Below, piece by piece: positions 1,636 through 28,483 of a DNA stretch of 47,574 nucleotides. Under the pieces are notes generated by a model, which was not told the origin of the DNA, did not search any database, and saw only the letters and a program-made list of their open reading frames with translations. The stretch is from Escherichia phage RobRod40, in the sequence record OR896835.1; one strand, written 5' to 3'. Within the stretch, counting starts at the first letter, position 1; every line of letters begins with the position of its first letter. Position numbers and translations under genes: made by a program.

Positions 1636-2112
1636 ATGAATTGGGCTGAATTTTTTAGATACGAAGATGGAAATCTGGTAAGGGTTATCACAACCTCAAG
1701 TAGAGCTATTGAGGGCATGGTTGCTGGAAGCTTGCCTGGCAATGGCTATCTGCACATAAGAATAGGCGACAGGCGTGTAAAAAACCATCGCATAATTTGG
1801 GAGATGCACAATGGAAGGATACCAGAAGGGATGGAGATATATCATATCAATCACATAAAGACAGATAACAGGATCGAGAATTTAAGGCTCGTAAGTCACA
1901 AACAGAACCTATCAAACGCATCGCTTAGGTCCGACTCGTCAACTGGTACGAGTGGCGTTAGTTGGAACAGAAACAGGCAGAAGTGGCACGCTTATATAAA
2001 GTCTAACTACAAGAGGATGCACATAGGATTTTTTGATTCCTTTGATAACGCCGTAGCAGCAAGAAAGAAAAAGGAGATTGAACTGGGATTTCATGAGAAT
2101 CACGGAAAATAG
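1636..2112 (+). CDS. HNH homing endonuclease (paralog 1)
   Basis: MNW..F.Y.DG N-terminus, WEMHNG and HINHIKTDNRIENLR motifs; RBS AAGAGGG upstream; shares these motifs with three other ORFs in window. Confidence 0.85.
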   Translation: MNWAEFFRYEDGNLVRVITTSSRAIEGMVAGSLPGNGYLHIRIGDRRVKNHRIIWEMHNGRIPEGMEIYHINHIKTDNRIENLRLVSHKQNLSNASLRSDSSTGTSGVSWNRNRQKWHAYIKSNYKRMHIGFFDSFDNAVAARKKKEIELGFHENHGK

Positions 2113-2592: not shown

Positions 2593-2616
2593 AGCCCCTA
2601 TATGGGGCTTTTTTAT
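2593..2616 (+). terminator. rho-independent terminator
   Basis: GC hairpin AGCCCC-tata-GGGGCT followed by T-run. Confidence 0.7.
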
Positions 2617-2627
2617 TGGAGAAAAAC

Positions 2628-3881
2628 ATGGTCAAGACAGACAGCTACGCCAATATCTTTCTCGGCGGTAGTGATGGTAGTGAGATTTACGGAAGTTTAC
2701 AGAATCAGGCACCAACAATTCTGGCCTCGCTTTACGCGGATAATGCTCTAGTGCGTCGAATTATCGACACAATCCCAGAGACGGCATTGGCGGCAGGATT
2801 CCATATTGATGGTATTGATGATGAGCCTGCATTCTGGTCGCGCTGGGATGATTTAGAAATGACGCAGAATATTAACGATGCATGGTCATGGGCTAGGTTG
2901 TTCGGCGGGGCTGCTATTGTCGCTATCGTTAAGGACAATAGAGCGCTAACAAGTCCGGTAAGAGAAGGAGCGGAACTTGAAACTGTTCGCGTTTACGACC
3001 GTACACAAGTAAAGGTTCAAACTCGCGAGGAGAATCCACGCAATGCACGTTTTGGTAAGCCACTTACCTATCGCATCACCACTAACGAAAGCGATATGTT
3101 TTACGATGTGCATTACAGCCGCATTCACGTCATCGATGGCGAGAGAATTCCTAACGTAATGCGTCGGCAAAATGATGGCTGGGGCCGCAGCGTTCTTTCC
3201 AGTGATATTCTTGACTCAATCAAGGATTACACCAATTGCGAACGACTCGCCACCCAGCTGCTGAGACGCAAGCAACAGGCGGTGTGGAAAGCCAAAGGTC
3301 TGGCTGAGCTGTGTGATGATAGCGAAGGATTTGGTGCCGCGCGCTTGCGACTTGCTCAGGTAGATAACAACAGTGGAGTTGGTCAGGCGATTGGTATTGA
3401 CGCGGAATCTGAAGAATATAGCGTTCTAAACTCTGATATTGGCGGGATTGATGCGTTTCTGGACAAGAAGCTCGATAGAATCGTTGCACTGAGCGGTATT
3501 CATGAAATAATCCTGAAGAACAAGAACGTTGGCGGTGTATCATCAAGCCAGAACACGGCTTTGGAGACATTCCACAAGCTAGTTGACCGCAAGCGTAATA
3601 GCGAGCTACTTCCTATTCTTGAGTTCTTAATCCCGTTCATTGTTAATGTGTCTGAATGGTCAGTGGAGTTTAACCCATTAGCTCAGGAGTCAAGCAAGGA
3701 TAAAGCGGAAATTCTGGAGAAGAACGTAAACAGCATCGCGGCACTAATTGCAGCTGGAGCTATGGATACTAACGAGGCTCGTGATACACTACGCACTATC
3801 GCGCCAGAGATTAAGATTGGTGATGGTGATATTGAGGCTCCGGAACAAGAACCCGCAGAGGAGGTTGTGATTAATGAGTAA
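2628..3881 (+). CDS. portal protein
   Basis: ~417-aa ORF after terL; ATG at 2628 preceded by GGAG (ORF-track start 2616 is TTG); size and position typical of siphovirus portal. Confidence 0.7.
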   Translation: MVKTDSYANIFLGGSDGSEIYGSLQNQAPTILASLYADNALVRRIIDTIPETALAAGFHIDGIDDEPAFWSRWDDLEMTQNINDAWSWARLFGGAAIVAIVKDNRALTSPVREGAELETVRVYDRTQVKVQTREENPRNARFGKPLTYRITTNESDMFYDVHYSRIHVIDGERIPNVMRRQNDGWGRSVLSSDILDSIKDYTNCERLATQLLRRKQQAVWKAKGLAELCDDSEGFGAARLRLAQVDNNSGVGQAIGIDAESEEYSVLNSDIGGIDAFLDKKLDRIVALSGIHEIILKNKNVGGVSSSQNTALETFHKLVDRKRNSELLPILEFLIPFIVNVSEWSVEFNPLAQESSKDKAEILEKNVNSIAALIAAGAMDTNEARDTLRTIAPEIKIGDGDIEAPEQEPAEEVVINE

Positions 3882-4962
3882 AATCCGCTATGACAGCGCA
3901 AAGTTTAAAGCAACAATCGACGAGAATGGATTCTTAGTCGACACACCAGTAGTTGCACGTCTCGGCGTGCAAGTCTACTACATGGAAGACGGGCGCACTG
4001 TTCGAGAGTTTCGCCCAGCAGAGGAGGTTTTCAAGGAGGAATCACTCGCAAGTTACCAGGGCAAGCCAATGACTATGGACCATGTTTTCGTTAACTCTGA
4101 GAACGCTAAAGAAGTAGTGGTGGGTTCCGTTAGTGGCAAAGCTGAGCCATTAGGTAGCTCCGTGGTTGCTCCTATCGTTGTTTACGACAATACAGCCATT
4201 CAGGAAGCTATGGCAGGTAACGCTAAGGAGTTATCGGTTGGATACTCTGCGATTCTTGACGAAACTCCAGGTTGGGGCGACCCTGTTACTGGTGAATACG
4301 TCCTTAAATCTGATGGTGATCAATTCGATGCGCCAGAAGGATGGCAGGAGTTCGACGCAATTCAGCGTGATATTAAAGTTAACCATCTCGCAATGGTGTA
4401 TCGCGGTCGCGCAGGTATTGCCAAATTGAATATGGACGGTGAGCAGGAAAACCCGTATACTACTGACGTTGATATCAATAAAGAGGATAAACAGGAAATG
4501 ACAATTAAGATTAAACTCGACGGCGCACAGGAATTTGAAGTTGCCCCGGAAATCGCTTCTCACATCGAAGCACTGAACGCAAAGGCCGATACCGCAATCG
4601 CTGAGCGTGATGCACTGAAAGCTAAAGTAGATGCTATGCCAGAGGAAATCGAAGCCGCTGTAGCCAAAGCAAAAGCTGATGCTGATGCTCTCGCCGCTCT
4701 GGTTGCTGTTGCTGCTGAGGCTGGCGTTAAGGCTGATGGTATGGATTCTAAAGGAATCAAAGTAGCTTACGTTAAAGAAGTCTCCGGTCTTGATGTTGCT
4801 GAGAAATCTGACGCGTACATCGACGCAGCGTTCGACATTGCCAAAGAATCTGATAAAATGGCTGAAGTACGTAAAGCGACTACCGCTTCCGACAAATCTG
4901 ACAGCGCCAATGAGCCTAAGAAATTAGACCCGCGTGCTCGTTTAGCTAAAATTAAGAAATAA
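3874..4962 (+). CDS. putative head morphogenesis / scaffolding protein (possible prohead protease domain)
   Basis: 362 aa; globular N-terminal half then Ala/Glu/Lys-rich predicted coiled coil (AKADTAIAERDALKAKVDAMPEEIEAAVAKAKADADALAALVAVAAEAG); start overlaps portal stop. Confidence 0.5.
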   Translation: MSKIRYDSAKFKATIDENGFLVDTPVVARLGVQVYYMEDGRTVREFRPAEEVFKEESLASYQGKPMTMDHVFVNSENAKEVVVGSVSGKAEPLGSSVVAPIVVYDNTAIQEAMAGNAKELSVGYSAILDETPGWGDPVTGEYVLKSDGDQFDAPEGWQEFDAIQRDIKVNHLAMVYRGRAGIAKLNMDGEQENPYTTDVDINKEDKQEMTIKIKLDGAQEFEVAPEIASHIEALNAKADTAIAERDALKAKVDAMPEEIEAAVAKAKADADALAALVAVAAEAGVKADGMDSKGIKVAYVKEVSGLDVAEKSDAYIDAAFDIAKESDKMAEVRKATTASDKSDSANEPKKLDPRARLAKIKK

Positions 4963-4974
4963 GGAGTTATAAAC

Positions 4975-5496
4975 ATGGCAATTCGTTCCGTAGCACTGGC
5001 TGGTATGGTTTCTGATACCTCTCTCTATAACATCGACGGCGCTTGTGTTGTTGGTGGCGCAGCAGCAATTCCTGTTGGCACTGTCGTTGGTGTTACATCC
5101 GCTCAGCCTGTAGATGGTCACAAGGTTGTTGGCCTTCCCGCCGTAACTGGTACGCCAGTCAAACCTTATGGTGTTGTTGTTAAATCTCATTACGAGACCC
5201 CAGATGGTACGGCTCGCGTAAATGAAGCAGTTAACGTAATGACTCATGGTCGCATCTGGGTACGCACCACTCTAGCAGCTGCGCCAGTTTTTGGTAGCAA
5301 GGTTTTCGTAAACGCAAGTGGTGTTGTTGTTGCTGAAGCGGCTGGCACTACTTGGGAGACTGGTTTTACATTTGCTGGTGGTTATGCGTCTGCTTATGCT
5401 GGCGGCGCTAACCCAATCAAGCAAGGTGAAAGCTACGATGGTGCAATCGTTGAGGTTCAGCTGATTCAATCCGCTGACTCAGCTGTCGCAGCTTAA
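4975..5496 (+). CDS. putative capsid decoration / structural protein
   Basis: 173 aa, Gly/Val/Ala-rich; strong RBS TAAGGAG; followed by rho-independent terminator; position between scaffold and capsid. Confidence 0.45.
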   Translation: MAIRSVALAGMVSDTSLYNIDGACVVGGAAAIPVGTVVGVTSAQPVDGHKVVGLPAVTGTPVKPYGVVVKSHYETPDGTARVNEAVNVMTHGRIWVRTTLAAAPVFGSKVFVNASGVVVAEAAGTTWETGFTFAGGYASAYAGGANPIKQGESYDGAIVEVQLIQSADSAVAA

Positions 5497-5534: not shown

Positions 5535-6080
5535 ATGATAAAAGTATTTTCTGGTGACTTCGAGTTCGCGCATGAGGCTGATGCATTTCTTAATGATGCA
5601 ATTTCCTCAGGATTCAAATATCTAGTTAGATCTCTGAGCACATCACAAATGATTCAGGCCTATAGTCGCAGCGACACAACGCCAGGGAAAGGGGTTATAA
5701 GAAAGGACGGGGTGAGAGTTTTGGGTGTAGCCCTGTCTGACGACCCTAGATGCGGAGAATTGGTTGATGAATTTTCGGTTTTTAAGTCAGCGGAGTATGA
5801 GGAGTATACCCATGAGATTGATGGTGTATGGGTTAACTATATCCACAATGACTTCTTAGATAAATTAAATGATGGCTGGAGGACGGTTACAGACAACAGC
5901 GTATCTCCTTTAAGCTACTACTATCAGGTGTTGACGTGGTCATGGGAGTACAGCTACTATTACACAAGATCATCATCAACTTATGGTATTTGCTTTTTGG
6001 CTAGATTTGCAAATCATGATTCAACTAAAAAGTCTGGTTGGGCTTTAGTCAAGTACGAAGAAGTTGACTCTCCAGAGTAA
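5535..6080 (+). CDS. hypothetical protein (terminator-flanked, moron-like)
   Basis: 181-aa ORF, RBS GGAGG; flanked on both sides by strong terminators; Tyr/Ser-rich C-terminus. Confidence 0.55.
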   Translation: MIKVFSGDFEFAHEADAFLNDAISSGFKYLVRSLSTSQMIQAYSRSDTTPGKGVIRKDGVRVLGVALSDDPRCGELVDEFSVFKSAEYEEYTHEIDGVWVNYIHNDFLDKLNDGWRTVTDNSVSPLSYYYQVLTWSWEYSYYYTRSSSTYGICFLARFANHDSTKKSGWALVKYEEVDSPE

Positions 6081-6085
6081 ATTAA

Positions 6086-6109
6086 AGCCTCCTTCGGGAG
6101 GTTTTTTTA
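6086..6109 (+). terminator. rho-independent terminator
   Basis: CCTCC-ttcg-GGAGG hairpin then TTTTTTT. Confidence 0.75.
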
Positions 6110-6161
6110 TGCCTGTAATCTGTTAGACTTATTAAGTATATTAACCAATCAGGAGATTAAG

Positions 6162-7595
6162 ATGGCTAGTGAATTAAGAGCAGTGACTGCTGGTACTGCC
6201 CATGCCCTAAAGCAAAAAATCACCGAATACATAGCTGAAGGTTGGCAGCCTTATGGCAGGATCCTTAATGCTGGGGCGACAAGTGTTGGCATTATAATGG
6301 CGAAAGGTACTGAGGCAAACATTACTGATGTTGATGTTATTACCGCAGATTCAAGGGCTTCCTTAGTTTCTAAGATTAACTCATCCATAGAAAATGGATT
6401 TGAGATGTTCGGCGAGCAGGAAGTGAACGCAAGTAGATTTATCGCATTCATGACTAAAGGGTCTCAAGGTTCATCTGGTGGCGGTGGTGAACCTGGACCA
6501 ATTGGACCAAAGGGTGATAAGGGAGATAAGGGTGACAAGGGAGACGTTGGTGAGCGCGGACCCGCTGGCGTAGCTGGTTCTGCTGGCGCTACAGGCCCGA
6601 CAGGCCCTCAGGGTTTAACTGGACCTGCTGGCGAAAAAGGTGATACTGGAGAGCAAGGCCCAATTGGCCCTACTGGTCCCACTGGCCCAAAGGGTGATAC
6701 TGGCGCAACTGGCCCCGCCGGACCGCAAGGCCCAAGAGGATTGCAAGGTGAACAGGGGGTTCCGGGCGAGGTTGGACCGGCTGGCTTGACATTCCAGGGC
6801 GCATGGGATTCTGCCTCCACATATGTGAAGGATGACACTGTAGTTTATGATGGATCTACTTGGTTTGCTCCAGATGCTGTAGCCTCAGGTTTGGTTCCAG
6901 GTGTTGCTCCTGAGTGGATCCTTTTAGCTGCACAAGGCGCAAGGGGAGAGGATGGTCCGCAGGGTCCGGTTGGCCCTCAGGGTTTACAGGGTGCCACTGG
7001 CCCGGCAGGTCCTACTGGCGCTACTGGCGCTACAGGTCCGCAAGGTCCCAGAGGTATACAAGGTCAAACCGGCCCGGCAGGTCCAGCAGGTCCTCAGGGT
7101 GAGGCTGGTCCTCAGGGTATTCAGGGACCACAGGGTATCGCTGGACCTCAGGGATTAACTGGCCCTCAGGGTCCAAAGGGTGATAAAGGTGATGCTCCTT
7201 ACACATTGTTTAACTCGCAGAACGTTACATCAACATACATTGAAATCCCCATTCCGCAAGTAACCAACACTGTACTTAGGGTTAGGCTTTCAGGTGCCAA
7301 CTTTGAATATAGCGTTTTAAGTAAAGGTGGCGCTAATAGATATGTTGACTTTTACACATTCATCCCGTCATTAACCAGCTCAACGGGTAACATCTATACC
7401 GGAGGAACCACCTTAACACCAACTGGTAGTCTTTTTTTGGGTAATTCCCCTGTGGCTCTCGGGTTAAGGGAGTTGACAATAACACTTAAGGAATGGGGTG
7501 ACAGGACACTAACTACAATAAAGGCGATACATCACGGCAGATCAGGTGACACAACAAGACCCTTGCAGATAACTATGTTTAGTAATAAGTATTAA
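6162..7595 (+). CDS. collagen-like repeat fibre protein
   Basis: Two long Gly-X-Y repeat tracts interrupted by a [13 protein letters not shown] tail-fibre-like segment; non-collagenous N- and C-terminal domains. Confidence 0.8.
6513..6548 (+). repeat. tandem 9-bp coding repeats (GGTGATAAG-like x4) in collagen-like gene
   Basis: ggtgataag ggagataag ggtgacaag ggagacgtt encoding [11 protein letters not shown]. Confidence 0.7.
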
Positions 7596-7675: not shown

Positions 7676-8620
7676 ATGGCCATTAAATTTGATGCAGAAC
7701 AAGCAAAAATCACCGCTCACCTCGAGCAAATGGGCGTAGATAAAGCTGATGCCGCCGGTATCTGGACCGTTAAGCAGCTGACCGCCACCCTGAATCGTGC
7801 TTACGAAAAAGAATATGCAGACAACTCCGTTGTTAACATCTTCCCTGTAACCAATGAAATCCCTGGTCACGCTAAGTATTTCGAATATCCAGAATTTGAT
7901 GGCGTTGGTATTGCTCAGATTATCGCGGATTACTCTGACGACCTGCCGCTGGTTGATGCTTTCATGACAGAGAAGCAAGGTAAAGTTTTCCGTTTCGGTA
8001 ACGCATTCCTGATTTCTACTGATGAAATTAAAGCAGGCGCTGCTACTGGTCAGTCTCTGTCAACTCGCAAACAGGCACTGGCTTTCGAAGCGCACGACAA
8101 CCTGCTGGATAAACTGGTTTGGTCTGGATCCACTCCGCACGGTATCGTGAGCGTATTCGACCAGCCGAACATCAACAACGTTGTTGCAACACCAGACTGG
8201 AGCGAGCCGCTGAACGCAATTAATGACGTTACTGCAATGATTGATGCGGTTGAGACTTCAACTCAGGGCTTCCATCACGTGACTGATATTCTACTTCCGG
8301 CATCTGCTCGCCGAGTAATGCAGGTTCTTGTTCCGAGTACTACCCTGAGCTACGGTGAGCTGTTCACCCGTAATAATCCGGGCCTGACTATTCGTTACAT
8401 GCAGTTCCTGGATAACTACGATGGCGCAGGTGGTAAGGCTGCTCTGGCGTTTGAAAAGAACCCGTTGAATATGTCTATCGAGATTCCAGAAGCTACAAAC
8501 GTACTTCCTGGTCAGCCGAAAGACTTGCACTTCAAGTACCCAGTAACTTCTAAAGCGACCGGTCTGATTGTTTATCGCCCTCTGACGATGGCAGTAATCA
8601 AAGGTATTACCTTCGCGTAA
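7676..8620 (+). CDS. major capsid protein
   Basis: 314 aa; own promoter with perfect TATAAT; strong terminator downstream; position in head module. Confidence 0.75.
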   Translation: MAIKFDAEQAKITAHLEQMGVDKADAAGIWTVKQLTATLNRAYEKEYADNSVVNIFPVTNEIPGHAKYFEYPEFDGVGIAQIIADYSDDLPLVDAFMTEKQGKVFRFGNAFLISTDEIKAGAATGQSLSTRKQALAFEAHDNLLDKLVWSGSTPHGIVSVFDQPNINNVVATPDWSEPLNAINDVTAMIDAVETSTQGFHHVTDILLPASARRVMQVLVPSTTLSYGELFTRNNPGLTIRYMQFLDNYDGAGGKAALAFEKNPLNMSIEIPEATNVLPGQPKDLHFKYPVTSKATGLIVYRPLTMAVIKGITFA

Positions 8621-10211: not shown

Positions 10212-10602
10212 ATTATCTATAGCAGCCAGAAAATATGTTAATGATTTGCTGGTGAGCAACTTCCCTGTCAGATATCCAGTATCCTGGGAAAATGTTTCTT
10301 TCACTCCTCCAGCAGATGGCTCTATCTGGCTAAAGTATGACTATATCGAGGTTGATACCGTAACCTACGGACTTAGCAGGAAGTGCAAATACTATGTAGG
10401 AATGGTGCAGGTTTCTGTTTTCTTTAGCCCTGGTACTGGCATTGACAAGCCGAGACAAATCGCTAATCAATTGGCAGAATCTATCGTTGATGGTACAATG
10501 CTTGACAGCGGGACCATTTATGAGTCTGGAGTTGTTAACCCGGTTATCAAATCCAAATCTGGGTGGTTTATCCCGGTTCATTTTTATGTTCGTCTAGACT
10601 AG
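10201..10602 (+). CDS. putative tail terminator-like protein
   Basis: GTG start preceded by GGAGG; overlaps upstream stop; position before major tail gene. Confidence 0.4.
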   Translation: MHYELSIAARKYVNDLLVSNFPVRYPVSWENVSFTPPADGSIWLKYDYIEVDTVTYGLSRKCKYYVGMVQVSVFFSPGTGIDKPRQIANQLAESIVDGTMLDSGTIYESGVVNPVIKSKSGWFIPVHFYVRLD

Positions 10603-10610
10603 GAACTAGC

Positions 10611-11096
10611 ATGAAAGATTTCTTAAATTCTCTTTACGATTATCGCGATGGAAAGATTTACAAGAAGGGCGGTGATAAACCATGTGGTTACGGTAAGACA
10701 AATGGCTACGTTCAAACATACGTTTCAAAGACTGGTAAGCGATATGTTCATAGATTGATCTGGGAAATGCATAATGGTGAAATTGCATATGGAATGCAGA
10801 TAGATCACATTAATGGTGTTAGGGATGATAATCGAATTGAGAATTTAAGATGCGTGACCGTAACTGATAACAGAAGAAATGCTGGAACCAGGTATCGCTC
10901 ACGTAGATTTCCTGGAGTTAATGGAGTAAACTACAACAAGCGCGATGATCTTTGGCATGCAATTATTTCTGACAAAGGAAGAGCAAGGAGTCTTGGTCAT
11001 TATAAGAGTTTTGTCTCAGCTTGCGAAGCAAGGATTGTCGCTGAAGTATTATTGGGATATCACGCTGGTCACGCAATGCGGGATAGCGTTTATTAA
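10611..11096 (+). CDS. HNH homing endonuclease (paralog 2)
   Basis: ATG at 10611 after AGGA; HRLIWEMHNG and IDHINGVRDDNRIENLR motifs; inserted between tail-completion and major tail genes. Confidence 0.85.
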   Translation: MKDFLNSLYDYRDGKIYKKGGDKPCGYGKTNGYVQTYVSKTGKRYVHRLIWEMHNGEIAYGMQIDHINGVRDDNRIENLRCVTVTDNRRNAGTRYRSRRFPGVNGVNYNKRDDLWHAIISDKGRARSLGHYKSFVSACEARIVAEVLLGYHAGHAMRDSVY

Positions 11097-11890: not shown

Positions 11891-12277
11891 ATGAAAGCAA
11901 TCATCGCAATTATGGCAACACTGCTACTTGCTGGCTGTAACAGCGATAAGGTTAAGACACTTAATGTTGATCTGGCTTCAAATGAATGCAAGAACATCGT
12001 ATACAACGCGACGGTTAACAATGAGGCATTTACTAGGCTTTCATTCAAATACCCAGAACTTAAAGATTCCGTTATGTACGTGGCCCACATTGAGTGCACT
12101 AAATCTGTTAACAATTTTACCCGTGGTGTTGTAATTGAACACACCACAACATTGGCAAAGGTATCAAAGCCTAGTGACGCTTCAATCGCGATGGTTTATA
12201 CTAAGATCTATAGTTTAGAGGCTCTCGCTAGTATGGTTGGCGAGAAACTAGCTTACTCACGCGTTGTTATGAAATAA
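11891..12277 (+). CDS. predicted lipoprotein inserted in tail module
   Basis: N-terminal signal peptide with lipobox LLAGC; own promoter-like module upstream. Confidence 0.65.
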   Translation: MKAIIAIMATLLLAGCNSDKVKTLNVDLASNECKNIVYNATVNNEAFTRLSFKYPELKDSVMYVAHIECTKSVNNFTRGVVIEHTTTLAKVSKPSDASIAMVYTKIYSLEALASMVGEKLAYSRVVMK

Positions 12278-12965: not shown

Positions 12966-15737
12966 ATGGCAACAAATGAATTAGCCGGAATCACACTAGC
13001 CGTAGACGTATCGCAGGTAGATAGGGGAACGCAATCCCTACAGAAGTTTAGGCAGGCTAACCAACAGGCCGCTTCCGGTATTAGTGAATTCGTCAACGCT
13101 GAGCAGGTCGCTAAAAACCAGGCTAGAGACACCGCGCGAGCACTTGCTGAGCAACAGGCTTCACTAGCTAAGCTGCAAACAGCTATTGATCCAACTGCGG
13201 CAAAGTTCCGCAAGCTGCAAGAGGCTGCGGTAGGTCTCGATAAGGCATTCGCGGCTGGAGTGGTGCCTGATGAGGAATTTTTCCGATTAGGTGAGGCTCT
13301 TGAAACTCAAAACGCAAAACTTGCTCGTTCACGTGCTGCGCTAACTGAAGAGGGGAGGGCTGCGGCTCAGGCTGCAAAGGATAAGGCAAAGGCAAAGGCT
13401 GAAGCGGATAGATTTATTGCGTCACTGCAACGACAGGCTCAAGCGGCAACATTGACGCGTGAAGAGTACTTGAAGTTGCAGGCGGCCCAGCTTGGCGTAT
13501 CCGCACAGGCGACCCCATTAATCAACCAGATTGGAGCAGCAACCCAAAGGACTGTTGAAAATCTTGGCAAGCAAGCCGCAGCATTCCAGAGGTCAGGTTT
13601 AAGTGCGGGACAATACAAGAATGCGATTTCTCAGTTACCAGCACAGATTACTGATATTGGTACATCATTAGCTGGCGGCATTCCTATTTGGCTTATTGCA
13701 ATCCAGCAGGGTGGGCAGATTAAGGATTCATTTGGCGGCATTGCTAATACTGCGAGATTCCTTCTTTCTTATCTCAACCCTCTCACAGTAGCCGCTGGCG
13801 TTCTTGGTGCTGGCTTTGCTTACGCCGCGGTAAGTATTTACAAGAGCGAGGCAGCCATTAAGGCAGCAAGAAAGGCGGTTGAGGAAACTCTGGGTGTCAC
13901 AGATGAGGCGGCTCGACAGTTAAGCATTAGCATCGCCAAGATTTCAGAGGCATCAGGGAAGACCGCTGAAGATATCGCGAAGTCATTCGTATCAACACGT
14001 GACGGAGCGCAAGAAGCAATTCTGAAGCTGATTGATGTTGGTGTAAGTTATGATGATGCAAGGGAGCTAGTTGAGCGATATAAGGATGCCTCCAACTTTA
14101 CCCAAGTTAACGCGCAAATCGAGCAACACAGACTTGAAGCTGCAAAGATTCAGGATAGCTGGTTCGAGAACGCAAAGGCCGTTAGCTACTATAACGATGT
14201 TGCAGTCCAGGGCCTAGTTAACTCACCACTAACAAACGTGGCGGCAAGAAACAGCGCGGCAATTCAGGAGTTCGCAAGCCTTCTGGAAAAGGACGTTAAC
14301 CAAGCTCTTATAGATGGAAATAGACATGTAGCCGAGCAAGTTGATTTAATCGGTAAAGAATACTTGGCACTTGACCGCGTGGCTGGTGCGGAGAAATCCC
14401 TGGCAGACGCTAGAAAGCAAGCAGCGGCAATCGCCAGAAGCGGTAACGCTGAAGCTATCGCCCAGGCCAATAGAGTCATTCAGTTGCGTCAGCGAGAGGT
14501 TGATGAAGCCAAGAAGGCCGAAGCGGAGAGAAATAAGCCAGCAAAAACGAAAGCACCAAAGGAAGCCAGAGACCTTACCATCAATTATGAGTCAGGAGTC
14601 CTTGCTCTTGAGGCGCAGTTAAGGCTTCTTCAGGACGTAGGGAGTCAGACAAAGGCAATCAGCACTGAGCGGAGAAAGCTTCTTGAGGAAGAAGCTAAGT
14701 TTGCAATCCTTGAGGAGCGTCAAGCAGCTGGTACAATAGGAAGAGAACAGGCCAGGCTTCTTCTTGAAAAGGATAAAGTTCTTGAACTAGCAAGACAGAA
14801 GGCTGAACTAGGTGATCAGATTGTTTTGCAGGAGCGCGCTAATAAGCTGGCTGAGGATAACCGCAAAAAGATTCTTCAGATAAACAACGAAGCAAATAAC
14901 ATCGATTTGGGCGCTGGGTTATCATCTCGGGATCAACAAAGGTCAAGAGAGATTCAGGCTCTTCAGTCCAATCAGGAAAACGCTGGTGGTTCTCTTGATG
15001 ACTTAGATTTCCAGCAATTACTGGAAGCAAGAAGGCAGTACTACAAGGATGAGGATAATCTCAGAGCAAACTGGAAAGCAGGTGTGACCTCCACTCTCTC
15101 TGACTTGAGTGATGAGTATACCAACTTCAACAAAATCGCCGGGGATTTAACCGCTGCGGCATTCAATGGAATTACCGATCAGATTACAAACCTTGTAACC
15201 ACTGGTGAGACCAACTTCCGGGAGTTCACCGCAAACATCCTCAAAATGATTGCTAAGATTGCAACTCAATTACTTTTGGTTAAGGCTATTGAATCTACAA
15301 TCAAGAGCTTTGGTGGTAACACTGGCGCGGGTAGTGCCTTCGAGTCAATAAGGTCAGCAATTGGTTTCGCTGGTGGTGGTTACACTGGTGATGGTGGAAA
15401 GTACCAGCCAGCGGGTACGGTACACCGAGGTGAATTCGTATTCACAAAAGAAGCAACAAGCCGAATTGGTGTTAAGAACCTTTACGCACTGATGAAAGGT
15501 TACGCAAATGGCGGTGCTGTAGGTGGCCCATCTGGTTATGCTAATGGCGGTTTGGTTTCTGGTGGGTCAGATGTTAATGTTAGTGGTATCACCGTTAACG
15601 TTAATGGTGGCGTTGGTAGCGACCCAGAACAGGCCAAAGCATTGCAGAGTGGCGTTAAGGCAATCGTAGCTGAAGAGATTGCTCAGTCTTTCCAGCAGGG
15701 AGGCAAAGCGTATGCCTATTTGAGAGGTTTTAACTAA
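12966..15737 (+). CDS. tail tape measure protein
   Basis: 923 aa, Ala/Gln/Glu-rich coiled-coil-like with Gly-rich C-terminal region; RBS GGAGG; follows G/GT chaperone. Confidence 0.85.
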   Translation: MATNELAGITLAVDVSQVDRGTQSLQKFRQANQQAASGISEFVNAEQVAKNQARDTARALAEQQASLAKLQTAIDPTAAKFRKLQEAAVGLDKAFAAGVVPDEEFFRLGEALETQNAKLARSRAALTEEGRAAAQAAKDKAKAKAEADRFIASLQRQAQAATLTREEYLKLQAAQLGVSAQATPLINQIGAATQRTVENLGKQAAAFQRSGLSAGQYKNAISQLPAQITDIGTSLAGGIPIWLIAIQQGGQIKDSFGGIANTARFLLSYLNPLTVAAGVLGAGFAYAAVSIYKSEAAIKAARKAVEETLGVTDEAARQLSISIAKISEASGKTAEDIAKSFVSTRDGAQEAILKLIDVGVSYDDARELVERYKDASNFTQVNAQIEQHRLEAAKIQDSWFENAKAVSYYNDVAVQGLVNSPLTNVAARNSAAIQEFASLLEKDVNQALIDGNRHVAEQVDLIGKEYLALDRVAGAEKSLADARKQAAAIARSGNAEAIAQANRVIQLRQREVDEAKKAEAERNKPAKTKAPKEARDLTINYESGVLALEAQLRLLQDVGSQTKAISTERRKLLEEEAKFAILEERQAAGTIGREQARLLLEKDKVLELARQKAELGDQIVLQERANKLAEDNRKKILQINNEANNIDLGAGLSSRDQQRSREIQALQSNQENAGGSLDDLDFQQLLEARRQYYKDEDNLRANWKAGVTSTLSDLSDEYTNFNKIAGDLTAAAFNGITDQITNLVTTGETNFREFTANILKMIAKIATQLLLVKAIESTIKSFGGNTGAGSAFESIRSAIGFAGGGYTGDGGKYQPAGTVHRGEFVFTKEATSRIGVKNLYALMKGYANGGAVGGPSGYANGGLVSGGSDVNVSGITVNVNGGVGSDPEQAKALQSGVKAIVAEEIAQSFQQGGKAYAYLRGFN

Positions 15738-18274: not shown

Positions 18275-18324
18275 TTTAGTGTAGAATGGCACAAATGATC
18301 AAAACAAACATGAGGCTTTGTGAT

Positions 18325-21300
18325 ATGGCTGAAGAGATTAAGATTTATGGTGCTAAAGGCGGTAGCCAGAAGCAGCATCAACCAGTTGAGCAGGAAGATA
18401 ACCTAATTTCGGTTAACAAGGTTAAGGTATTGCTTGCTGTTGCTGATGGTGAGGTTGACTCTAATTTCTCCATGAAGGATTTATACCTTGCTGATGTGCC
18501 TGTTCAGAACCAGGATAACAGCTATAACTATGAGGGTGTTAGAGCAGAATTTCGCGCTGGGACTCAGTATCAGGATTACATTGCTGGACTTGATGGTGCT
18601 AACTCAGAGATTCAGGCATCTCGTGAAATCACGAATGACACGCCTTACATTATTGCGGTTAATAACAGTCAGCTTTCGGCAATTCGGGTTAAACTTTTTT
18701 GGCCTAGATTGGTTAAGCAAGAAAGCAACGGCGACCTGAATGGTACAACTTGCGAGTACGCAATTGACTTGTCCGTTAATGGCGGAGTATATCAGGAATA
18801 CACTCGCGGAGTTGCAAACGGTAAGACAACTACTGGTTACGACCGCAGCATTCGTGTAAACCTTCCGGCTGAATTTGATAGTGCACTGGTTCGGATCCGA
18901 AAGATTACAGCGGATTCAACGAGTAGCACACTGGTTAATGGAATGCAGATTACAACCTATCAGGAAGTAATCGACGCTAAATTCCGATATCCGCTTACAG
19001 CACTTGTTTATGTTGAGTTCGGCTCTGACCTTTTCCCTAACGGGATCCCGACAATATCAATCAAGAAGAGATGGAAGCTGATTCAAGTTCCAACGAACTA
19101 TAATCCGGAGACAAGAACCTACAGCGGAACATGGAATGGCCTGTTCAAGATGGCATGGTCAAACAACCCTGCCTGGGTTCTTTATGACTTAGTCACAAAC
19201 CGACGTTATGGTCTTGACCAGCGAGAGCTAGGTGTAGAGATTGATAAGTGGGGATTGTATGAAGCCGCGCAATTCTGTGACCAGATGGTTCCAGATGGCA
19301 AGGGTGGCTTAGAGCCGAGATACCTTTGCGATATGGTTGTGCAAAACAAGGTTGAAGCTTACACGCTAATTCGCGATATCTGCTCAATCTTCCGCGGACT
19401 GACTTTCTATGATGGCGAAAAGATTGGTATCGTGGTTGATAAGCCTCGCAATCCATCATACATCTTTACGAATGATAACGTTGTAAATGGGTTATTTAGC
19501 CGCACATTTGCCAGTGATAAGAGTCTTTACACTACCGCAAACGTCCAGTTTGATGATGTAGAGAACAACTATCAACAAGATGTAGAGCCGGTATTTGAAT
19601 TAGAGGCAACTCGTCGTTTTGGATTTAACCCTGTAGATTTGACTGCGATTGGCTGCACTCGCAGAAGTGAAGCAAACAGGCGCGGCAGGTGGCTCCTAAA
19701 AACCAACCTGAGAAGCGAAACTATCAGCTTCACTACCGGGCTGGAAGGCATGATTCCGATGATTGGCGAGGTCATTGCAGTTAATGACGCGGCATGGTCT
19801 AGCAACTATCAGTTAAACCTTTCCGGTCGTATTGAATCAGTTCAGGGATTGCAGGTTTTTACCCCGTTTAAAGTTGACGCAGCGCCGGGTGACAGAATTC
19901 TTCTGAACAAGCCAGACGGAAGTCCAGAGGCAAGAACTATTGCCAGCGTTTCGGAAGATGGTAGAACAATCAACCTTAACACCGCTTTCAGTTTTGTTGC
20001 TCAGCCTGATACTGTGTTCGCAATCGATAAGGACAATCTGGCGCTTCAGCAATATGTTGTGACCGGGATTCAAAAAGCGGATTCAGACGGCTCGGACTCG
20101 TTCCAGTATACGATTACAGCAGTAGAGTATGACCCGAACAAGTATGACGAGATTGACTACGGCGTTAACATTGTTGATCGTCCGACTTCAATTGTAGAGC
20201 CTGATAGATTGTCGCCACCAGAAAACCTTACCGTATCAAGTTACAGTAAAATTGTTCAGGGCTTGTCAGTTGAGACGATGGTCATTGGATGGGATAAGGC
20301 TCCATACGCTAAAACCTACAATGTTCAGTGGAGAAAAGAGAATGGCAACTGGATTAACGTACCCAGAACAGCTAGCACAGAAGTTGATATTGAGGGTATT
20401 TACGCAGGAATCTATGACGTTAGGGTTCGCAGCGTATCAGATACTGAAAACGTTTCTGCATGGTCTGACATTGTAACAGTATCGCTAACTGGCAAGATTG
20501 GTCGCCCATCGGCACCTACGGTTATCACGGCATCAACAGATGAGGTATTTGGCATCCGTGTTAAGTGGGGTTTCCCTGAAGGCTCTGGTGACACTGCTTA
20601 CACTGAACTTCAACAGGTTCCTGATAATGGTGATGGTACTTACAATCCTGATAACGCAAGTTTGCTTACATTACTTCCGTATCCGGCTTATGAATACTGG
20701 CACACGCCGATTCAGCCGGGTAAGGTTATCTGGTATCGCGCAAGGATTATAGATAGGATTGGCAATACATCTGATTGGACGGATTTCGTCAGAGGAATGA
20801 GTACTGATGATGCTCAGAAGATCGCTGAATATATCAAGGTTGATATCGAGCAGTCTGAAGGCTTTAAATACCTACAGCAGAATGCAATTGAGAAAAACCA
20901 GGACATTCAGAATCAAGCTGAGGCAATTATCGAGAACGCATTGGCGAATGACTCAGATGTAAGGCTTCAGTCTGTTAAGAATGGGAAATTTACAGCTTCA
21001 ATAACCGAAAGTCTTCAGTTGATTGCCGATGAGCAGCAAGCCAGGGTAACTCAGATATCTCAGCTTGAAGCGGATTTTGACGGAAGGGTTAATTCTTTAA
21101 ACACTGAACTAAGAGAGGTAATAACAACTGGTGATAGCGCTCTATCAAGATCAATTGATGATTTAAGGGTTGAGATTGACGAGAACATATCATCACAAAT
21201 AACAAACATAAACACAGCTTTAGTAACAGAAGCAGAAGCAAGAGCAACGGCTGACACGGCTTTGTCTGCAAGGCTTGGTCAGAACGAGGCAGCGCTAAAC

Positions 21301-21780
21301 CAGAAGCTGGATGCTTTCTCTAATGCCACATCAACTGGCGTGCAGTACGGAATTAGTCTTGGCCTAAAATACAATGGACAGACTTATTCATCTGGTATGA
21401 GCATGGAGTTAGTTGGCACTGGTGGCAATGTTCGCAGTCAATTCATTTTTGATGCAAACAGATTCGCGATCAGTAACGGTATCGGCTCTGGTTCCGGTCA
21501 GTGGCAACTCCCCTTCGTTGTCGAGAACGGTAACGTAATCATCCAGAGTGCAGTAATCGGAGATGGCTCAATCAGCAACGCGAAGATTGGTAACTTTATT
21601 CAGTCGAATAACTATGTAGCAAACACTACCGGCTGGAGACTTGATAAAGGTGGCACATTCGAGAATAACGGGTTTACGCCTGGTGAAGGCAGAATGAAGC
21701 AGACCAACCAAACAATTTCGGTTGCTGATGGAAATGGCAGGCTTCGCGTTCAGATTGGTCGTTTAACTGGAGTTTACTAA
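18325..21780 (+). CDS. tail tip / host specificity protein (gpJ-like)
   Basis: ~1150 aa; N-terminus MAEEIKIYGAKGGSQK resembles the J-family start; start 18325 chosen for GAGG RBS (in-frame alternatives 18286, 18310). Confidence 0.8.
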   Translation: MAEEIKIYGAKGGSQKQHQPVEQEDNLISVNKVKVLLAVADGEVDSNFSMKDLYLADVPVQNQDNSYNYEGVRAEFRAGTQYQDYIAGLDGANSEIQASREITNDTPYIIAVNNSQLSAIRVKLFWPRLVKQESNGDLNGTTCEYAIDLSVNGGVYQEYTRGVANGKTTTGYDRSIRVNLPAEFDSALVRIRKITADSTSSTLVNGMQITTYQEVIDAKFRYPLTALVYVEFGSDLFPNGIPTISIKKRWKLIQVPTNYNPETRTYSGTWNGLFKMAWSNNPAWVLYDLVTNRRYGLDQRELGVEIDKWGLYEAAQFCDQMVPDGKGGLEPRYLCDMVVQNKVEAYTLIRDICSIFRGLTFYDGEKIGIVVDKPRNPSYIFTNDNVVNGLFSRTFASDKSLYTTANVQFDDVENNYQQDVEPVFELEATRRFGFNPVDLTAIGCTRRSEANRRGRWLLKTNLRSETISFTTGLEGMIPMIGEVIAVNDAAWSSNYQLNLSGRIESVQGLQVFTPFKVDAAPGDRILLNKPDGSPEARTIASVSEDGRTINLNTAFSFVAQPDTVFAIDKDNLALQQYVVTGIQKADSDGSDSFQYTITAVEYDPNKYDEIDYGVNIVDRPTSIVEPDRLSPPENLTVSSYSKIVQGLSVETMVIGWDKAPYAKTYNVQWRKENGNWINVPRTASTEVDIEGIYAGIYDVRVRSVSDTENVSAWSDIVTVSLTGKIGRPSAPTVITASTDEVFGIRVKWGFPEGSGDTAYTELQQVPDNGDGTYNPDNASLLTLLPYPAYEYWHTPIQPGKVIWYRARIIDRIGNTSDWTDFVRGMSTDDAQKIAEYIKVDIEQSEGFKYLQQNAIEKNQDIQNQAEAIIENALANDSDVRLQSVKNGKFTASITESLQLIADEQQARVTQISQLEADFDGRVNSLNTELREVITTGDSALSRSIDDLRVEIDENISSQITNINTALVTEAEARATADTALSARLGQNEAALNQKLDAFSNATSTGVQYGISLGLKYNGQTYSSGMSMELVGTGGNVRSQFIFDANRFAISNGIGSGSGQWQLPFVVENGNVIIQSAVIGDGSISNAKIGNFIQSNNYVANTTGWRLDKGGTFENNGFTPGEGRMKQTNQTISVADGNGRLRVQIGRLTGVY

Positions 21781-26085: not shown

Positions 26086-26109
26086 AAGCCCCTTTCGGGG
26101 CTTTTTTAT
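26086..26109. terminator. bidirectional terminator between ssb and minus-strand tailspike
   Basis: AAGCCCC-tttc-GGGGCTT flanked by A-run upstream and T-run downstream. Confidence 0.7.
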
Positions 26110-28442
26110 TAACCTATTTTAGTGTAAGTCCATCTGTAAGTAGCTGTACCCAGTGCAGTTATAAAAACAATCCTTGAGCTAACATCAATTGTTGTAAAGG
26201 ATGCCGTCTTAGTGACTATAATTGATGACGCGGTTCCATCAAAGAGAACATCAGCTATGACGCTATAGTTTGTTCCAGCATTCTGCACCCAGCAACAAAC
26301 CTTATAAAGACCTGCTGAGTTAGGAAGTTCAAAAAGACCAGCTTGAACGTTTGCCTGCGCCACCGTTGAACCTTTAGCCGTATAAACACCATCAGTCTTC
26401 AATCCTTCTGATGAGTAGGTCTGCTTATAACCACCAACAATAGAACCACCCATAGGTTCAGTAAACCAGTTCACATTACCCTGACTAACAACAGATATTA
26501 CAGGAGCGCCACCTTTGGCTGACTGGAACCTGCCGCTTAAAATGTCAATTCTAGATGCTGAGTCCTGGGCGTAGATAGTTACAGGGTATCCACCAGTTCC
26601 AGTGTAAACCAAGCCGTCATTATCAAGAGAATCTTCCGAAGAGTCAATAATGACGTGAGAAGTTCCAGAAGCCTTGATATATGAAACCACACCACTAGAA
26701 CCTGCGCCAGTTGTTCTAACTTCGTTCTTCCATCCTGTCAGGCCTGAAATTCTTCCATTTGAGTTATTAAACCTAATCAGGCAACAATCCTGAGAACCGT
26801 TGGTGTCAATAATGTTACCTTCAACGTCCATCCCTAGTATGTTTACACTATGACTGTTGATGAAGTTAATTCCAGCCCCACCATAAGAGCCAGATGTTGA
26901 TGATATATTGCTTCCATCCATTGCGCAGTTAATCATCGTAACGCTCATTACTGCACCAAATTCATAAGGTGAAATGCAACCTGATGCGTAACAAGTCTCA
27001 AGCAACATTGTCGTCCCAGTCGCCTTGATGAATCCCGTTCTGCAATTCCTGGCCCAAACATTCTGTAACTTAGTTTGGTATGTTCCAGTGGTATCCGTGT
27101 AACAACCCCACGCTCCATGTACCGTGCAATCTTTGATACATGAATTTTCCAGACCAGTTGCAGAACCAACATTAGAAACGAAGTTAAATGCTATCTTTTG
27201 ATCATTCCCTGATGCTACGGTAGGTGTGGTTCCTGGATTATAAAAAATGTAAAGACCTTCAATAAATATTTGATACATTCTTATGTTTTGTGCATCACCC
27301 TGAACCAAGGCAAACAGGTTGATGTTACCATCAACTGAGATAAATGTTTGCGCCCTGTTAATTTGGTCTGTTCCCTCGCCAATAATTCTTGTGCTGTTGC
27401 CAATCCTTACAGTCCTGTTAATAAACATAAATCCTTTTGGTATGTATACCGTTTTGCCAGTATTAACCGCCGCCTGAAGCGCAACTGCGTCAAGTGACTC
27501 GTTAAGGTTTGATGCAAACGGATAAACAACCCGTGCAGCCTCAATTGTAGAGAATTTAGATGATAGCGGAACTAAACTACCGTTGTTTGTGGCGCCGAAA
27601 TCCATAACGTTAACAAAATCACCAAGTTTTGATTCCACGCTTCTAACTACTGATGATACATTATTCAGCTTGAAGTTAATCATTGATGAGCCATTATCAT
27701 TCTCAAGATTTTTAAGAACCCTTCCGTTTGAAAGGAGTCTCCATCCAGTAGCATCATCTATACCACCAGTTCCTTCTGGAGTTGATCCTTGCGGGACAAC
27801 CTTAGGGAATGCTCCAGACCACACATAAACAGAAGAGTTTTCAATGTCTATGATTTGCTGAGAATCACCCTCGAGAGTAACTCCACCCTGGAAGCTGCCA
27901 ACTAAAGCACCTGAAACTGATGCCGCCGCACTCTGGGCGACGCTTGCAGAGTTGATTGCAGATAATGCGGAATTAGAAGCAGAATCTTTGTCACTTGAAA
28001 CCTGAGCGGCATCGTTTGAAACCTGCGCACCAATTGAAACCACTTCATTATGCTGCGTGTCAACCTGAGCAACCTTAGCACTAAATTCATTTGCATCAAA
28101 GTTGTTGAAAGCATCAACAGCATCTGCAACCTCAGTTTCACGTGACTGATAGTAACGAAGAGTTTCTGCAACATCCTGCGCCAGTCCCTGAACGCTAATT
28201 CCATCATGGGCAAGGATTGCGTAACCAGTACCAGCAGGAACAGTTTCACCATTAGGATTGTATACAGCTAATGATGTGTCGCTAGTGATTTCAGAGATAG
28301 TGTAAATCTGTACTGGCTCTGTTTTAAAAACCAATGTAGCACCAACGCGAATAAGCGTTAGCGGCATAGTCCATTGAGTACCAACACCAGTAACTTGCCC
28401 GTTAGCGGCTAAACTGGCAGTGCCAGTATCATAAATTGCCAT
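26109..28442 (-). CDS. tail fibre / tailspike with beta-helix-like central domain
   Basis: N-terminus MAIYDTGTASLAANGQVTGVGTQW typical of tail-fibre anchor; Gly/Asn/Thr-rich central domain; ATG at 28442 with GGAG RBS (track start 28472 is GTG). Confidence 0.65.
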   Translation of the reverse strand: MAIYDTGTASLAANGQVTGVGTQWTMPLTLIRVGATLVFKTEPVQIYTISEITSDTSLAVYNPNGETVPAGTGYAILAHDGISVQGLAQDVAETLRYYQSRETEVADAVDAFNNFDANEFSAKVAQVDTQHNEVVSIGAQVSNDAAQVSSDKDSASNSALSAINSASVAQSAAASVSGALVGSFQGGVTLEGDSQQIIDIENSSVYVWSGAFPKVVPQGSTPEGTGGIDDATGWRLLSNGRVLKNLENDNGSSMINFKLNNVSSVVRSVESKLGDFVNVMDFGATNNGSLVPLSSKFSTIEAARVVYPFASNLNESLDAVALQAAVNTGKTVYIPKGFMFINRTVRIGNSTRIIGEGTDQINRAQTFISVDGNINLFALVQGDAQNIRMYQIFIEGLYIFYNPGTTPTVASGNDQKIAFNFVSNVGSATGLENSCIKDCTVHGAWGCYTDTTGTYQTKLQNVWARNCRTGFIKATGTTMLLETCYASGCISPYEFGAVMSVTMINCAMDGSNISSTSGSYGGAGINFINSHSVNILGMDVEGNIIDTNGSQDCCLIRFNNSNGRISGLTGWKNEVRTTGAGSSGVVSYIKASGTSHVIIDSSEDSLDNDGLVYTGTGGYPVTIYAQDSASRIDILSGRFQSAKGGAPVISVVSQGNVNWFTEPMGGSIVGGYKQTYSSEGLKTDGVYTAKGSTVAQANVQAGLFELPNSAGLYKVCCWVQNAGTNYSVIADVLFDGTASSIIVTKTASFTTIDVSSRIVFITALGTATYRWTYTKIG

Positions 28443-28465
28443 TGTGTAAATTCTCCATTTGTAAA

Positions 28466-28483
28466 ATAGCACGAATTGCTAAA
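28466..28483 (+). promoter_or_regulatory. motif copy ATAGCAC-gaa-TTGCTAAA without canonical downstream hexamer
   Basis: Lies in leader/upstream region of minus-strand tailspike gene; an extended -10 TGcTACAAT is present on the minus strand at 28488-28496. Confidence 0.4.

Follow-up and report, generated by a model that had tools for sequence, protein, structure and literature searches.

Evidence that a collagen-like protein of Escherichia phage RobRod40, with tandem DUF1737 domains, is probably a head fibre

The genome of Escherichia phage RobRod40 (sequence record OR896835.1; 47,574 nucleotides (nt), analysed whole and referred to here as the window) is that of a Braunvirinae (Rtp-like, Drexlerviridae) coliphage, and within its block of head genes lies a gene for a collagen-like protein of 477 amino acids (aa). 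An earlier note, made from the sequence alone, had suggested for this protein the possible role of either head fibre or auxiliary adhesin. The analysis reported here supports that suggestion, and we think it probable, short of being secure, that the gene product is a trimeric collagen-like head fibre that serves as a non-essential capsid decoration and auxiliary adhesin. Support comes from the architecture of the protein, which includes a CBM5/12-type carbohydrate-binding module (CBM); from the homology of its N-terminal anchor to a domain of phage phi24B; from synteny, with the tail fibres of the phage encoded elsewhere; from the detection by mass spectrometry (MS) of an orthologue in virions of phage Rogue1; and from the modular exchange of fibre tips. 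Relatives of the anchor that carry phi29-type head-fibre C-termini point in the same direction.

The open reading frame (ORF) is exactly as the earlier note had given it, on the plus strand and with an ATG start (Table 1). Its first 100 residues are a tandem of two DUF1737 domains, an assignment that draws on a combination of several signals. Residues 6-33, within repeat 1, match Pfam PF08410 (E 1.4e-7, 31.7 bits against a cut-off of 24), and repeat 2, scanned alone, gives a weak match (Pfam E 0.019) to the same DUF1737 profile columns in the same register. When an alignment of 15 family members was split into halves, the two repeat profiles aligned over 49 columns with 97.8% probability (hhalign, E 7e-13); the duplication is visible only in such a profile-profile comparison, and BLASTP, given the two repeats as individual sequences, returned no alignment. 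In the homologue from phage MM01, repeat 2 is itself called as DUF1737 by Pfam (E 2.1e-7). The DUF1737 fold consists of a single helix and three antiparallel strands, and in the AlphaFold2 (AF2) model of the window protein's N-terminus a beta-alpha-beta-beta arrangement occurs twice (predicted local distance difference test, pLDDT, 68; predicted template-modelling score, pTM, 0.56). A Foldseek search of the PDB with this model returned nothing below E 0.5, the top matches being little-finger domains of Y-family polymerases at a template-modelling (TM) score of about 0.2, which are uninformative, and the N-terminal family sequence profile had no significant match in the PDB.

The identity of this domain matters because of what has been described in the Shiga toxin (Stx) phage phi24B. 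Cryo-electron microscopy (cryo-EM) of that phage placed residues 2-57 of the esterase gp84, forming a DUF1737 hexamer, at the pore in the hexon centre, and the authors of the 2026 preprint name the segment a capsid-binding domain (bioRxiv 10.64898/2026.04.10.717836). Repeat 1 aligns with the N-terminus of phi24B gp84 (vb_24B_21) by BLASTP (E 3e-8, 46% identity over 28 aa, with the EGWQPYG motif identical), and gp84 residues 2-57 match the family profile with 96.9% probability (hhalign, E 1.8e-10). The likeness between the window protein and gp84, a NanS-p-type esterase, lies in this N-terminal PF08410 domain, homologous to repeat 1, and in a payload carried off the capsid surface. The differences are considerable. 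Each gp84 chain has one DUF1737 domain and assembles as a hexamer, whereas the window protein has two per chain and is presumed to be a trimer; the gp84 payload is an esterase on a T=9 podovirus, whereas that of the window protein is a collagen/CBM fibre on a T1-like siphovirus; and the SSP self-cleavage sites of gp84 have left no sign in the window protein.

An orthologue of the protein is present in virions. Rogue1_0021 (gp21) consists of tandem DUF1737 domains, collagen, CBM, collagen and a different C-terminal knob, is encoded at the same position, and contains the four GPVGP pentamers reported by Kropinski and colleagues. These authors identified gp21 in CsCl-purified Rogue1 virions, at 59.5% coverage, by matrix-assisted laser desorption/ionization QqTOF analysis of a visible 52.7-kDa band on sodium dodecyl sulphate polyacrylamide gel electrophoresis; two further bands were analysed, and these were the major capsid and major tail proteins (PMC3496638). 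The earlier note had named absence from virions as the observation that would speak against a fibre; for this orthologue the opposite was found. The Rogue1 authors also pointed out that 'DNA polymerase I' is an incorrect name for the JK06 homologue, in which a segment with GPVGP repeats at its borders is missing (PMC3496638). We rejected the 'DNA polymerase' label, which is attached to phrog_22681 and to the proteins of JK06, C119, phiKP26 and Sf12, on finding that Collagen, DUF1737 and CBM_5_12 are the only Pfam families matched.

Beyond the anchor, the protein is built as a shaft with a module inserted midway and a globular tip. Both of the long Gly-X-Y tracts claimed by the earlier note are real and uninterrupted, and the Pfam Collagen match (PF01391, E 3e-29) is far beyond chance; proline occupies the X position in 29 of the 66 triplets, and Y is mostly Q, T, A or K. 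The segment between the tracts, which the note had likened to a carbohydrate-binding repeat, proved to be of the CBM5/12 type. In isolation it matched Pfam CBM_5_12 (PF02839) at E 2.3e-4; scores for the window sequence were 18.2-21.6 bits, under the gathering score of 26.2. Many homologues carry a precomputed PF02839 match, and a profile of 33 such modules matched, over its full length, the chitin-binding domain of Bacillus circulans chitinase A1 (1ED7, E 2.3e-6), as well as the CBMs of Chitinase 60 and chitin deacetylase, with the W, Y, Y and W positions conserved. The unit is widespread, about 50 aa long, present in one to three copies per protein and always flanked by collagen, and it follows the pattern G-L-x-W/F-x-G-x-W-...-Y-...-D-x-V-x-Y-x-G-...-P-...-W-x-L-L-x-x-G. 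The knob is predicted, with high confidence (pLDDT 91.5), to be a beta-sandwich of ten strands, and other collagen-like or 'tail-fibre-like' phage proteins end in domains that are clearly related to it in structure (TM 0.81 for that of phage JS10). The window protein has no match to PF11133 (Phage_head_fibr), nor to the Ig or Hoc families of Pfam.

The anchor is confined to a narrow group of phages and, at the loci examined, to one place in their genomes. An exhaustive phmmer search with residues 1-105 against 1.84 billion representatives (E <= 1e-3) gave 21 matches, of which about 17 are genuine; P0124, P0131, P0132 and P0133 were discarded on inspection as repetitive and unrelated. Word-indexed searches with the isolated N-terminal or C-terminal domain returned one match each, and the full-length query and phmmer were needed. 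In the genuine matches the anchor is N-terminal and is followed by a fibrous region of trimer type, which is either collagen or a 'W..VTGKP.TF' tail-fibre-repeat/coiled-coil; two of them, P0128 (E 6.2e-7) and P0130 (E 1.4e-8), join the tandem-DUF1737 anchor to a Pfam Phage_head_fibr (phi29 gp8.5) C-terminus that scores above the cut-off. Among 50,697 phage records the anchor was present in 32, all named as phages of Escherichia, Shigella, Enterobacteria or Klebsiella, and those of the anchor-bearing records that were examined are without exception Drexlerviridae (T1-like) genomes. At each of the 10 Drexlerviridae loci that we examined (the window, AugustePiccard, e4/1c, two metagenomic contigs, phiEB49, Rogue1, MM01, ES and BEK6), the cement gene precedes the anchor gene and the major capsid gene comes directly after it. 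In the window, the claimed location between scaffold/decoration and major capsid genes is borne out by neighbours that match Pfam Phage_cement and phrog_264.

Two of these loci, those of phiEB49 (L010, 3492-4181) and BEK6 (L015, 2992-3681), hold short members of 229 aa in which tandem DUF1737 domains occur without collagen. In these the anchor is followed by a tail-fibre-type repeat, 'VAWGDVTGKPSTF', and then by an Ala-rich C-terminus that is probably a coiled coil; the phiEB49 protein is named 'virion structural protein' in RefSeq.

The collagen-CBM-collagen-knob cassette, for its part, travels beyond this family. It is found with unrelated N-termini in the T4-like phage JS10, where it adjoins two hoc genes; in the rV5-like phage A7_1, where it lies inside the tail-fibre cluster behind a 36-aa N-terminal adaptor; and in a T7-like contig, between holin and lysozyme. 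Since different N-termini share the same cassette, it is the N-terminus, and not the fibre, that sets the mounting place. The A7_1 (A71_112), JS10 (EpJS10_0176) and T7-like proteins have knobs 45-52% identical to that of the window protein, but their adaptors and gene neighbourhoods differ from those of the window, and they are presumably mounted at another site on the virion. The JS10 protein (L004, 5743-6750) is 335 aa long and begins with MADSIFGHDGRG...; with homologues of its knob at similar genome coordinates in VR25 and VR26, it may be a Dhakavirus head fibre that uses another anchor.

Within Drexlerviridae, anchor and tip appear to follow different histories. The proteins of e4/1c (L003, 3785-5302) and MM01 (L013, 3001-4542), both from Rogunavirinae, have anchors that are 95% identical and capsid proteins that are 97% identical, with unrelated knobs (27%), whereas identity between the window and e4/1c is 97% in the cement protein, 42% in the anchor, 96% in the knob and 83% in the capsid protein. 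Judged by these sequence identities, the three knobs present a clean case in which tips have been exchanged between subfamilies, the apparent joint being the collagen tract. The three pairs with near-identical anchors are also the three with the most similar capsid proteins, although the anchor is encoded at the end of the gene farther from the capsid gene. This hints that the anchor tracks the capsid protein and that the knob does not.

The chief competing assignment is to the tail, as a tail fibre or side fibre on the tail tip or tube that would act as a primary or secondary receptor-binding protein. It is the assignment found in databases: the window protein matches phrog_5073, 'tail fiber protein', over its full length (E 4.8e-118), and RefSeq uses such names for the proteins of e4/1c, C119, Sf12 and Rogue1. 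Further, the presence of the cassette in the A7_1 tail-fibre cluster fits a tail fibre, as does a weak match of the CBM profile to the solved tail-fibre chains 8ke9 and 9rkv. We nevertheless consider a tail location improbable. The annotations are names propagated without experiment; at all 10 loci the gene lies in the head block, never near J or the lateral-fibre genes, both of which are complete; the N-terminus belongs to a capsid-binding domain family and is not a tail adaptor; the A7_1, JS10 and T7-like proteins that share the cassette have other N-termini; and relatives of the anchor bear a head-fibre C-terminus. As labels for this family, 'tail fibre' and 'DNA polymerase' are probably both wrong.

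Granting a place on the head, the fibre might stand at the neck or portal vertex, as a whisker or collar like T4 fibritin, or at the capsid 3-fold sites in the manner of phi29 gp8.5, and not at hexon centres. A trimer naturally suits a 3-fold site, phi29 head fibres occupy quasi-3-fold sites and two family members have the phi29 fibre C-terminus, and the site on the RobRod40 capsid is a prediction by analogy. The sole structural datum for DUF1737, however, is a hexon centre; 3-fold and inter-capsomer sites are usually occupied by Phage_cement-type proteins, one of which is encoded just upstream; the gene is not beside the head-tail connector genes; and a 6-fold site accounts better for the conserved duplication of the anchor. 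A neck or 3-fold position is accordingly one to which we give little credence. We give still less to the idea that the protein is not part of the virion at all, being instead a moron-like accessory product (for example a late-expressed adhesin of collagen-like type, released or placed on the cell surface) or else a relic of pseudo-structural kind. The gene is indeed accessory, since Rtp, JulesPiccard, JeanPiccard and ACG-M12 lack it, as do most of the 104 related records, and it occupies a variable, hairpin-bounded slot with unrelated cargo, but the Rogue1 orthologue is in CsCl-purified virions, the N-terminus reads as having no signal peptide, the anchor has a known capsid-binding homologue, and the ORF is intact, with a strong ribosome-binding site and 96-98% aa conservation with AugustePiccard.

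Several points weigh against a hexon-centred head fibre and temper our confidence in it. The virion MS comes from Rogue1 and the structure from phi24B, not from RobRod40 or AugustePiccard; between Rogue1 gp21 and the window protein the anchors have no more than about 28% identity, a visible gel band is no proof of high copy number, and negative-stain electron microscopy of Rogue1 reported no head fibres. The phi24B evidence comes from an unreviewed preprint, and phi24B is a T=9 podovirus whose capsid protein is a different one; the Tyr42 'tooth' loop that anchors the phi24B domain is not conserved in the window protein, a loss that might be expected given the different capsid protein. The AF2 model of the N-terminus is of moderate quality and lacks a significant fold match in the PDB. 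The covariation of anchor and capsid protein is only suggestive because it comes from few, non-independent pairs (Spearman 0.39). The tail-fibre names of PHROGs and RefSeq and the use of the cassette in the tail-fibre cluster of rV5-like phages also belong on this side of the balance.

If the protein is a head fibre, as we favour, its parts suggest how it would work. The two DUF1737 domains would dock on the outer surface of the major-capsid lattice, most likely at hexon centres by analogy with the gp84 domain, while the upstream-encoded cement protein would sit at inter-capsomer sites. The Gly-X-Y tracts of three chains would wind into a triple helix, as expected of collagen sequence, and at 0.286 nm per residue the 111 and 87 residues of the two tracts would span about 32 and 25 nm, a length comparable to the capsid diameter. 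The fibre would present a CBM5/12-type glycan-binding module midway along the shaft and an exchangeable beta-sandwich knob at its tip, and weak, reversible, multivalent binding to a polysaccharide, whether of the host envelope or of the gut surroundings, could then raise the local concentration of phage before the tail meets its receptor.

A more speculative extension, which we put forward as a possibility less likely to be right than wrong, is that the DUF1737 duplication is a symmetry adaptor. Three chains with two domains each would supply six domains, and these might form a pseudo-hexameric ring on the hexon that mimics the homo-hexamer of phi24B; the anchor would co-evolve with the capsid protein, and the collagen tracts would act as joints at which CBM/knob cassettes are swapped among siphoviruses, myoviruses and podoviruses. 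Should this be true, it would be a genetically encoded way to mount a 3-fold fibre on a quasi-6-fold capsomer, and with as many as 60 fibres, each about 60 nm long, the capture diameter of the particle would roughly triple, from about 60 to about 180 nm.

Fibres and accessory proteins on capsids are known from other phages. One of them is SPP1 gp12, a non-essential collagen-like trimer at hexon centres (quasi-6-fold), for which an adhesion role has been proposed, and a role of the same kind, adhesion, has been proposed for Hoc, pb10 and phi29 gp8.5 (PMC7602432). Compared by description, SPP1 gp12 and the window protein are alike in architecture and in gene position. The SPP1 gene lies just upstream of the major capsid gene, and gp12, whose binding is reversible and depends on temperature, is very short, with about 64 aa and about eight Gly-X-Y triplets, and is not known to have a DUF1737, CBM or knob; the window protein, in contrast, has 477 aa, 66 triplets and three globular modules. 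Phage phi29 gp8.5 is, like the proposed RobRod40 fibre, a trimeric and dispensable head fibre thought to aid attachment to the host wall, but it is a helix-turn-helix supercoil where the window protein is collagen, and it binds quasi-3-fold sites (PMC7602432). T4 Hoc and T5 pb10 are accessory decorations of the adhesion type at hexon centres, as proposed here for the window fibre; unlike the window protein, both are monomeric strings of Ig-like domains. Fibres mounted on capsids and decoration proteins of collagen-like type (phi29 gp8.5, SPP1 gp12) are already known, and DUF1737 capsid binding was reported in 2026. We found no prior characterization in the literature on collagen in Drexlerviridae or T1-like phages or on cryo-EM of Drexlerviridae decoration proteins, and no published description of the combination of tandem DUF1737 with collagen, CBM and knob, of its restriction to Drexlerviridae, or of the symmetry-matching implication.

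The genomic setting is a head module (Table 1), in the order terminase, portal, protease/scaffold, Phage_cement, a 181-aa orphan, the collagen gene and the major capsid gene, the product of the last being the proposed partner bound by the fibre. The tail module downstream is complete, with the tape measure at 12966-15737, L/K/I-like minor tail proteins, the central fibre J at 18286-21780 and a lateral fibre on the minus strand at 26109-28472. The closest record is the BASEL phage AugustePiccard (Bas01), with about 88% identity over 83% of the first 25 kb.

Table 1. Coordinates in the window of the collagen-like fibre gene, its parts and its neighbours
Feature	Position	Strand	Remarks
Portal	2616-3881		context gene
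Protease/scaffold	3874-4962		context gene
Capsid cement/decoration protein	4975..5496	+	Pfam Phage_cement PF22758, E 5.3e-26
181-aa orphan ORF in variable slot	5535..6080	+	no Pfam or PHROG match
Hairpin then U-run (GCCUCC-UUCG-GGAGG-UUUUUUU)	6084..6105	+	-12.3 kcal/mol, z -2.6 (fold)
Shine-Dalgarno AGGAG	6151..6155	+	6 nt before ATG; sequence reading
Collagen-like fibre protein, whole coding sequence	6162..7595	+	ATG start, 477 aa
DUF1737 repeat 1, proposed capsid anchor	6162..6311	+	residues 1-50, EGWQPYG motif
DUF1737 repeat 2	6312..6461	+	residues 51-100
Collagen tract 1	6459..6791	+	residues 100-210, 37 Gly-X-Y triplets; Gly/Ser-rich linker at start
Imperfect 9-bp tandem repeat, (GDK)x4	6513..6545	+	Tandem Repeats Finder (TRF) 6510-6541, period 9, 3.6 copies, 86% matches
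CBM5/12-type module	6792..6935	+	residues 211-258 (48 aa), interrupts the triple helix
Collagen tract 2	6936..7196	+	residues 259-345, 29 Gly-X-Y triplets
Beta-sandwich knob, exchangeable fibre tip	7197..7592	+	residues 346-477, 10 strands
Stable hairpin after collagen-gene stop codon	7601..7620	+	-12.6 kcal/mol; A-run before stem
Major capsid protein	7676..8620	+	phrog_264, E 2.6e-89; Pfam Major_capside in homologous loci

Hairpins mark the limits of a variable slot between the cement gene and the capsid gene, which the collagen gene shares with unrelated cargo (a GDSL esterase, DUF1353, orphans). In JulesPiccard it holds small ORFs only; in AugustePiccard, a 429-aa protein and the collagen protein bas01_0010, which is 97.6% identical to that of the window; and in e4/1c, two small ORFs and a 505-aa homologue of the collagen gene. 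With esterase and DUF1353 genes among its contents, the slot collects surface-active cargo. The AugustePiccard gene annotated as 'putative head outer capsid protein' (L001, 3707-4996) in fact codes for an esterase of the GDSL/SGNH type that carries a CE2_N-like domain (Pfam E 4e-13), an echo of the esterase displayed on the phi24B capsid, and a metagenomic relative (L008, 2384-3670) has the same esterase gene together with a 280-aa unknown and a DUF1353 protein. No DUF1737-like module was detected in the slot-mates, namely the 181-aa orphan of the window and the GDSL esterase of AugustePiccard and the metagenomic relative (hhalign, <1% each). The 181-aa ORF is flanked by terminator-like hairpins, and its sole homologue among the 50,697 phage records is in JulesPiccard (91% identity), where it is annotated as three small ORFs.

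The earlier note had also described the gene as flanked by terminators, which stands for one side of it. The upstream hairpin, with its U-run, looks like the intrinsic-terminator-like end of the upstream orphan gene. Downstream, AAAAACUCG follows the stem on the plus strand, with no U-run, and so the hairpin is not a canonical plus-strand terminator; a terminator scan called it solely as a minus-strand terminator, yet the neighbouring genes are all on the plus strand. It may be an RNA-stabilizing 3' structure, or a weak attenuator that tunes the ratio of fibre to capsid transcript. Similar hairpins lie 3' of the cement gene and of the capsid gene.

At the DNA level, the tandem 9-bp repeats in the note were confirmed by TRF, and so were the spurious ORFs on both strands, of which three (62-76 aa) lie within the collagen tracts, at 6608-6838 (minus), 6914-7102 (plus) and 6952-7158 (plus). 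The G+C content of the Gly-X-Y tracts is 61-62%, against 44.6% in the window. The expected length variation is seen in part. Among distant homologues the tract length varies by indels in multiples of Gly-X-Y, steps of three residues that fit recombination within the collagen repeats, and Rogue1 and JK06 differ by the indel bounded by GPVGP, but the window gene and its AugustePiccard orthologue (about 92% nt identity) have exactly the same length. Similarly, repeats on which slippage could act are present but imperfect, with 60-86% identity, and this, together with the equal lengths in window and AugustePiccard, means that the gene is not obviously hypervariable.

Elsewhere in the window, ORFs at 1636-2112 (plus) and 10563-11096 (plus) carry an HNH-type homing-endonuclease signature (...HRIIWEMHNG...HINH/HINGV..DNRIENLR...), the one after the terminase gene and the other inside the head-tail/tail gene block; these calls rest on reading of the sequence and on annotations in AugustePiccard and the contigs (HNH_3). 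A 128-aa ORF at 11891-12277 (plus), placed between the major tail protein and tail-chaperone genes, starts with MKAIIAIMATLLLAGCNSD, a typical lipoprotein signal with a lipobox, and could encode a superinfection-exclusion lipoprotein.

T1/Rtp-like coliphages serve as model phages (BASEL collection), occur as fermentation contaminants and are candidates for therapy, and reassigning this family to the capsid would shift where determinants of host range and adsorption are sought in their genomes. With AugustePiccard publicly available and encoding a 97.6%-identical protein, the head-fibre prediction is directly testable. It would provide a second, independent context for the DUF1737 capsid-binding domain and a testable model for fitting a trimeric fibre to a hexameric capsomer. 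Further, the combination of an anchor, a rigid spacer and an exchangeable binding tip would constitute a natural modular display scaffold, usable for phage display and engineering.

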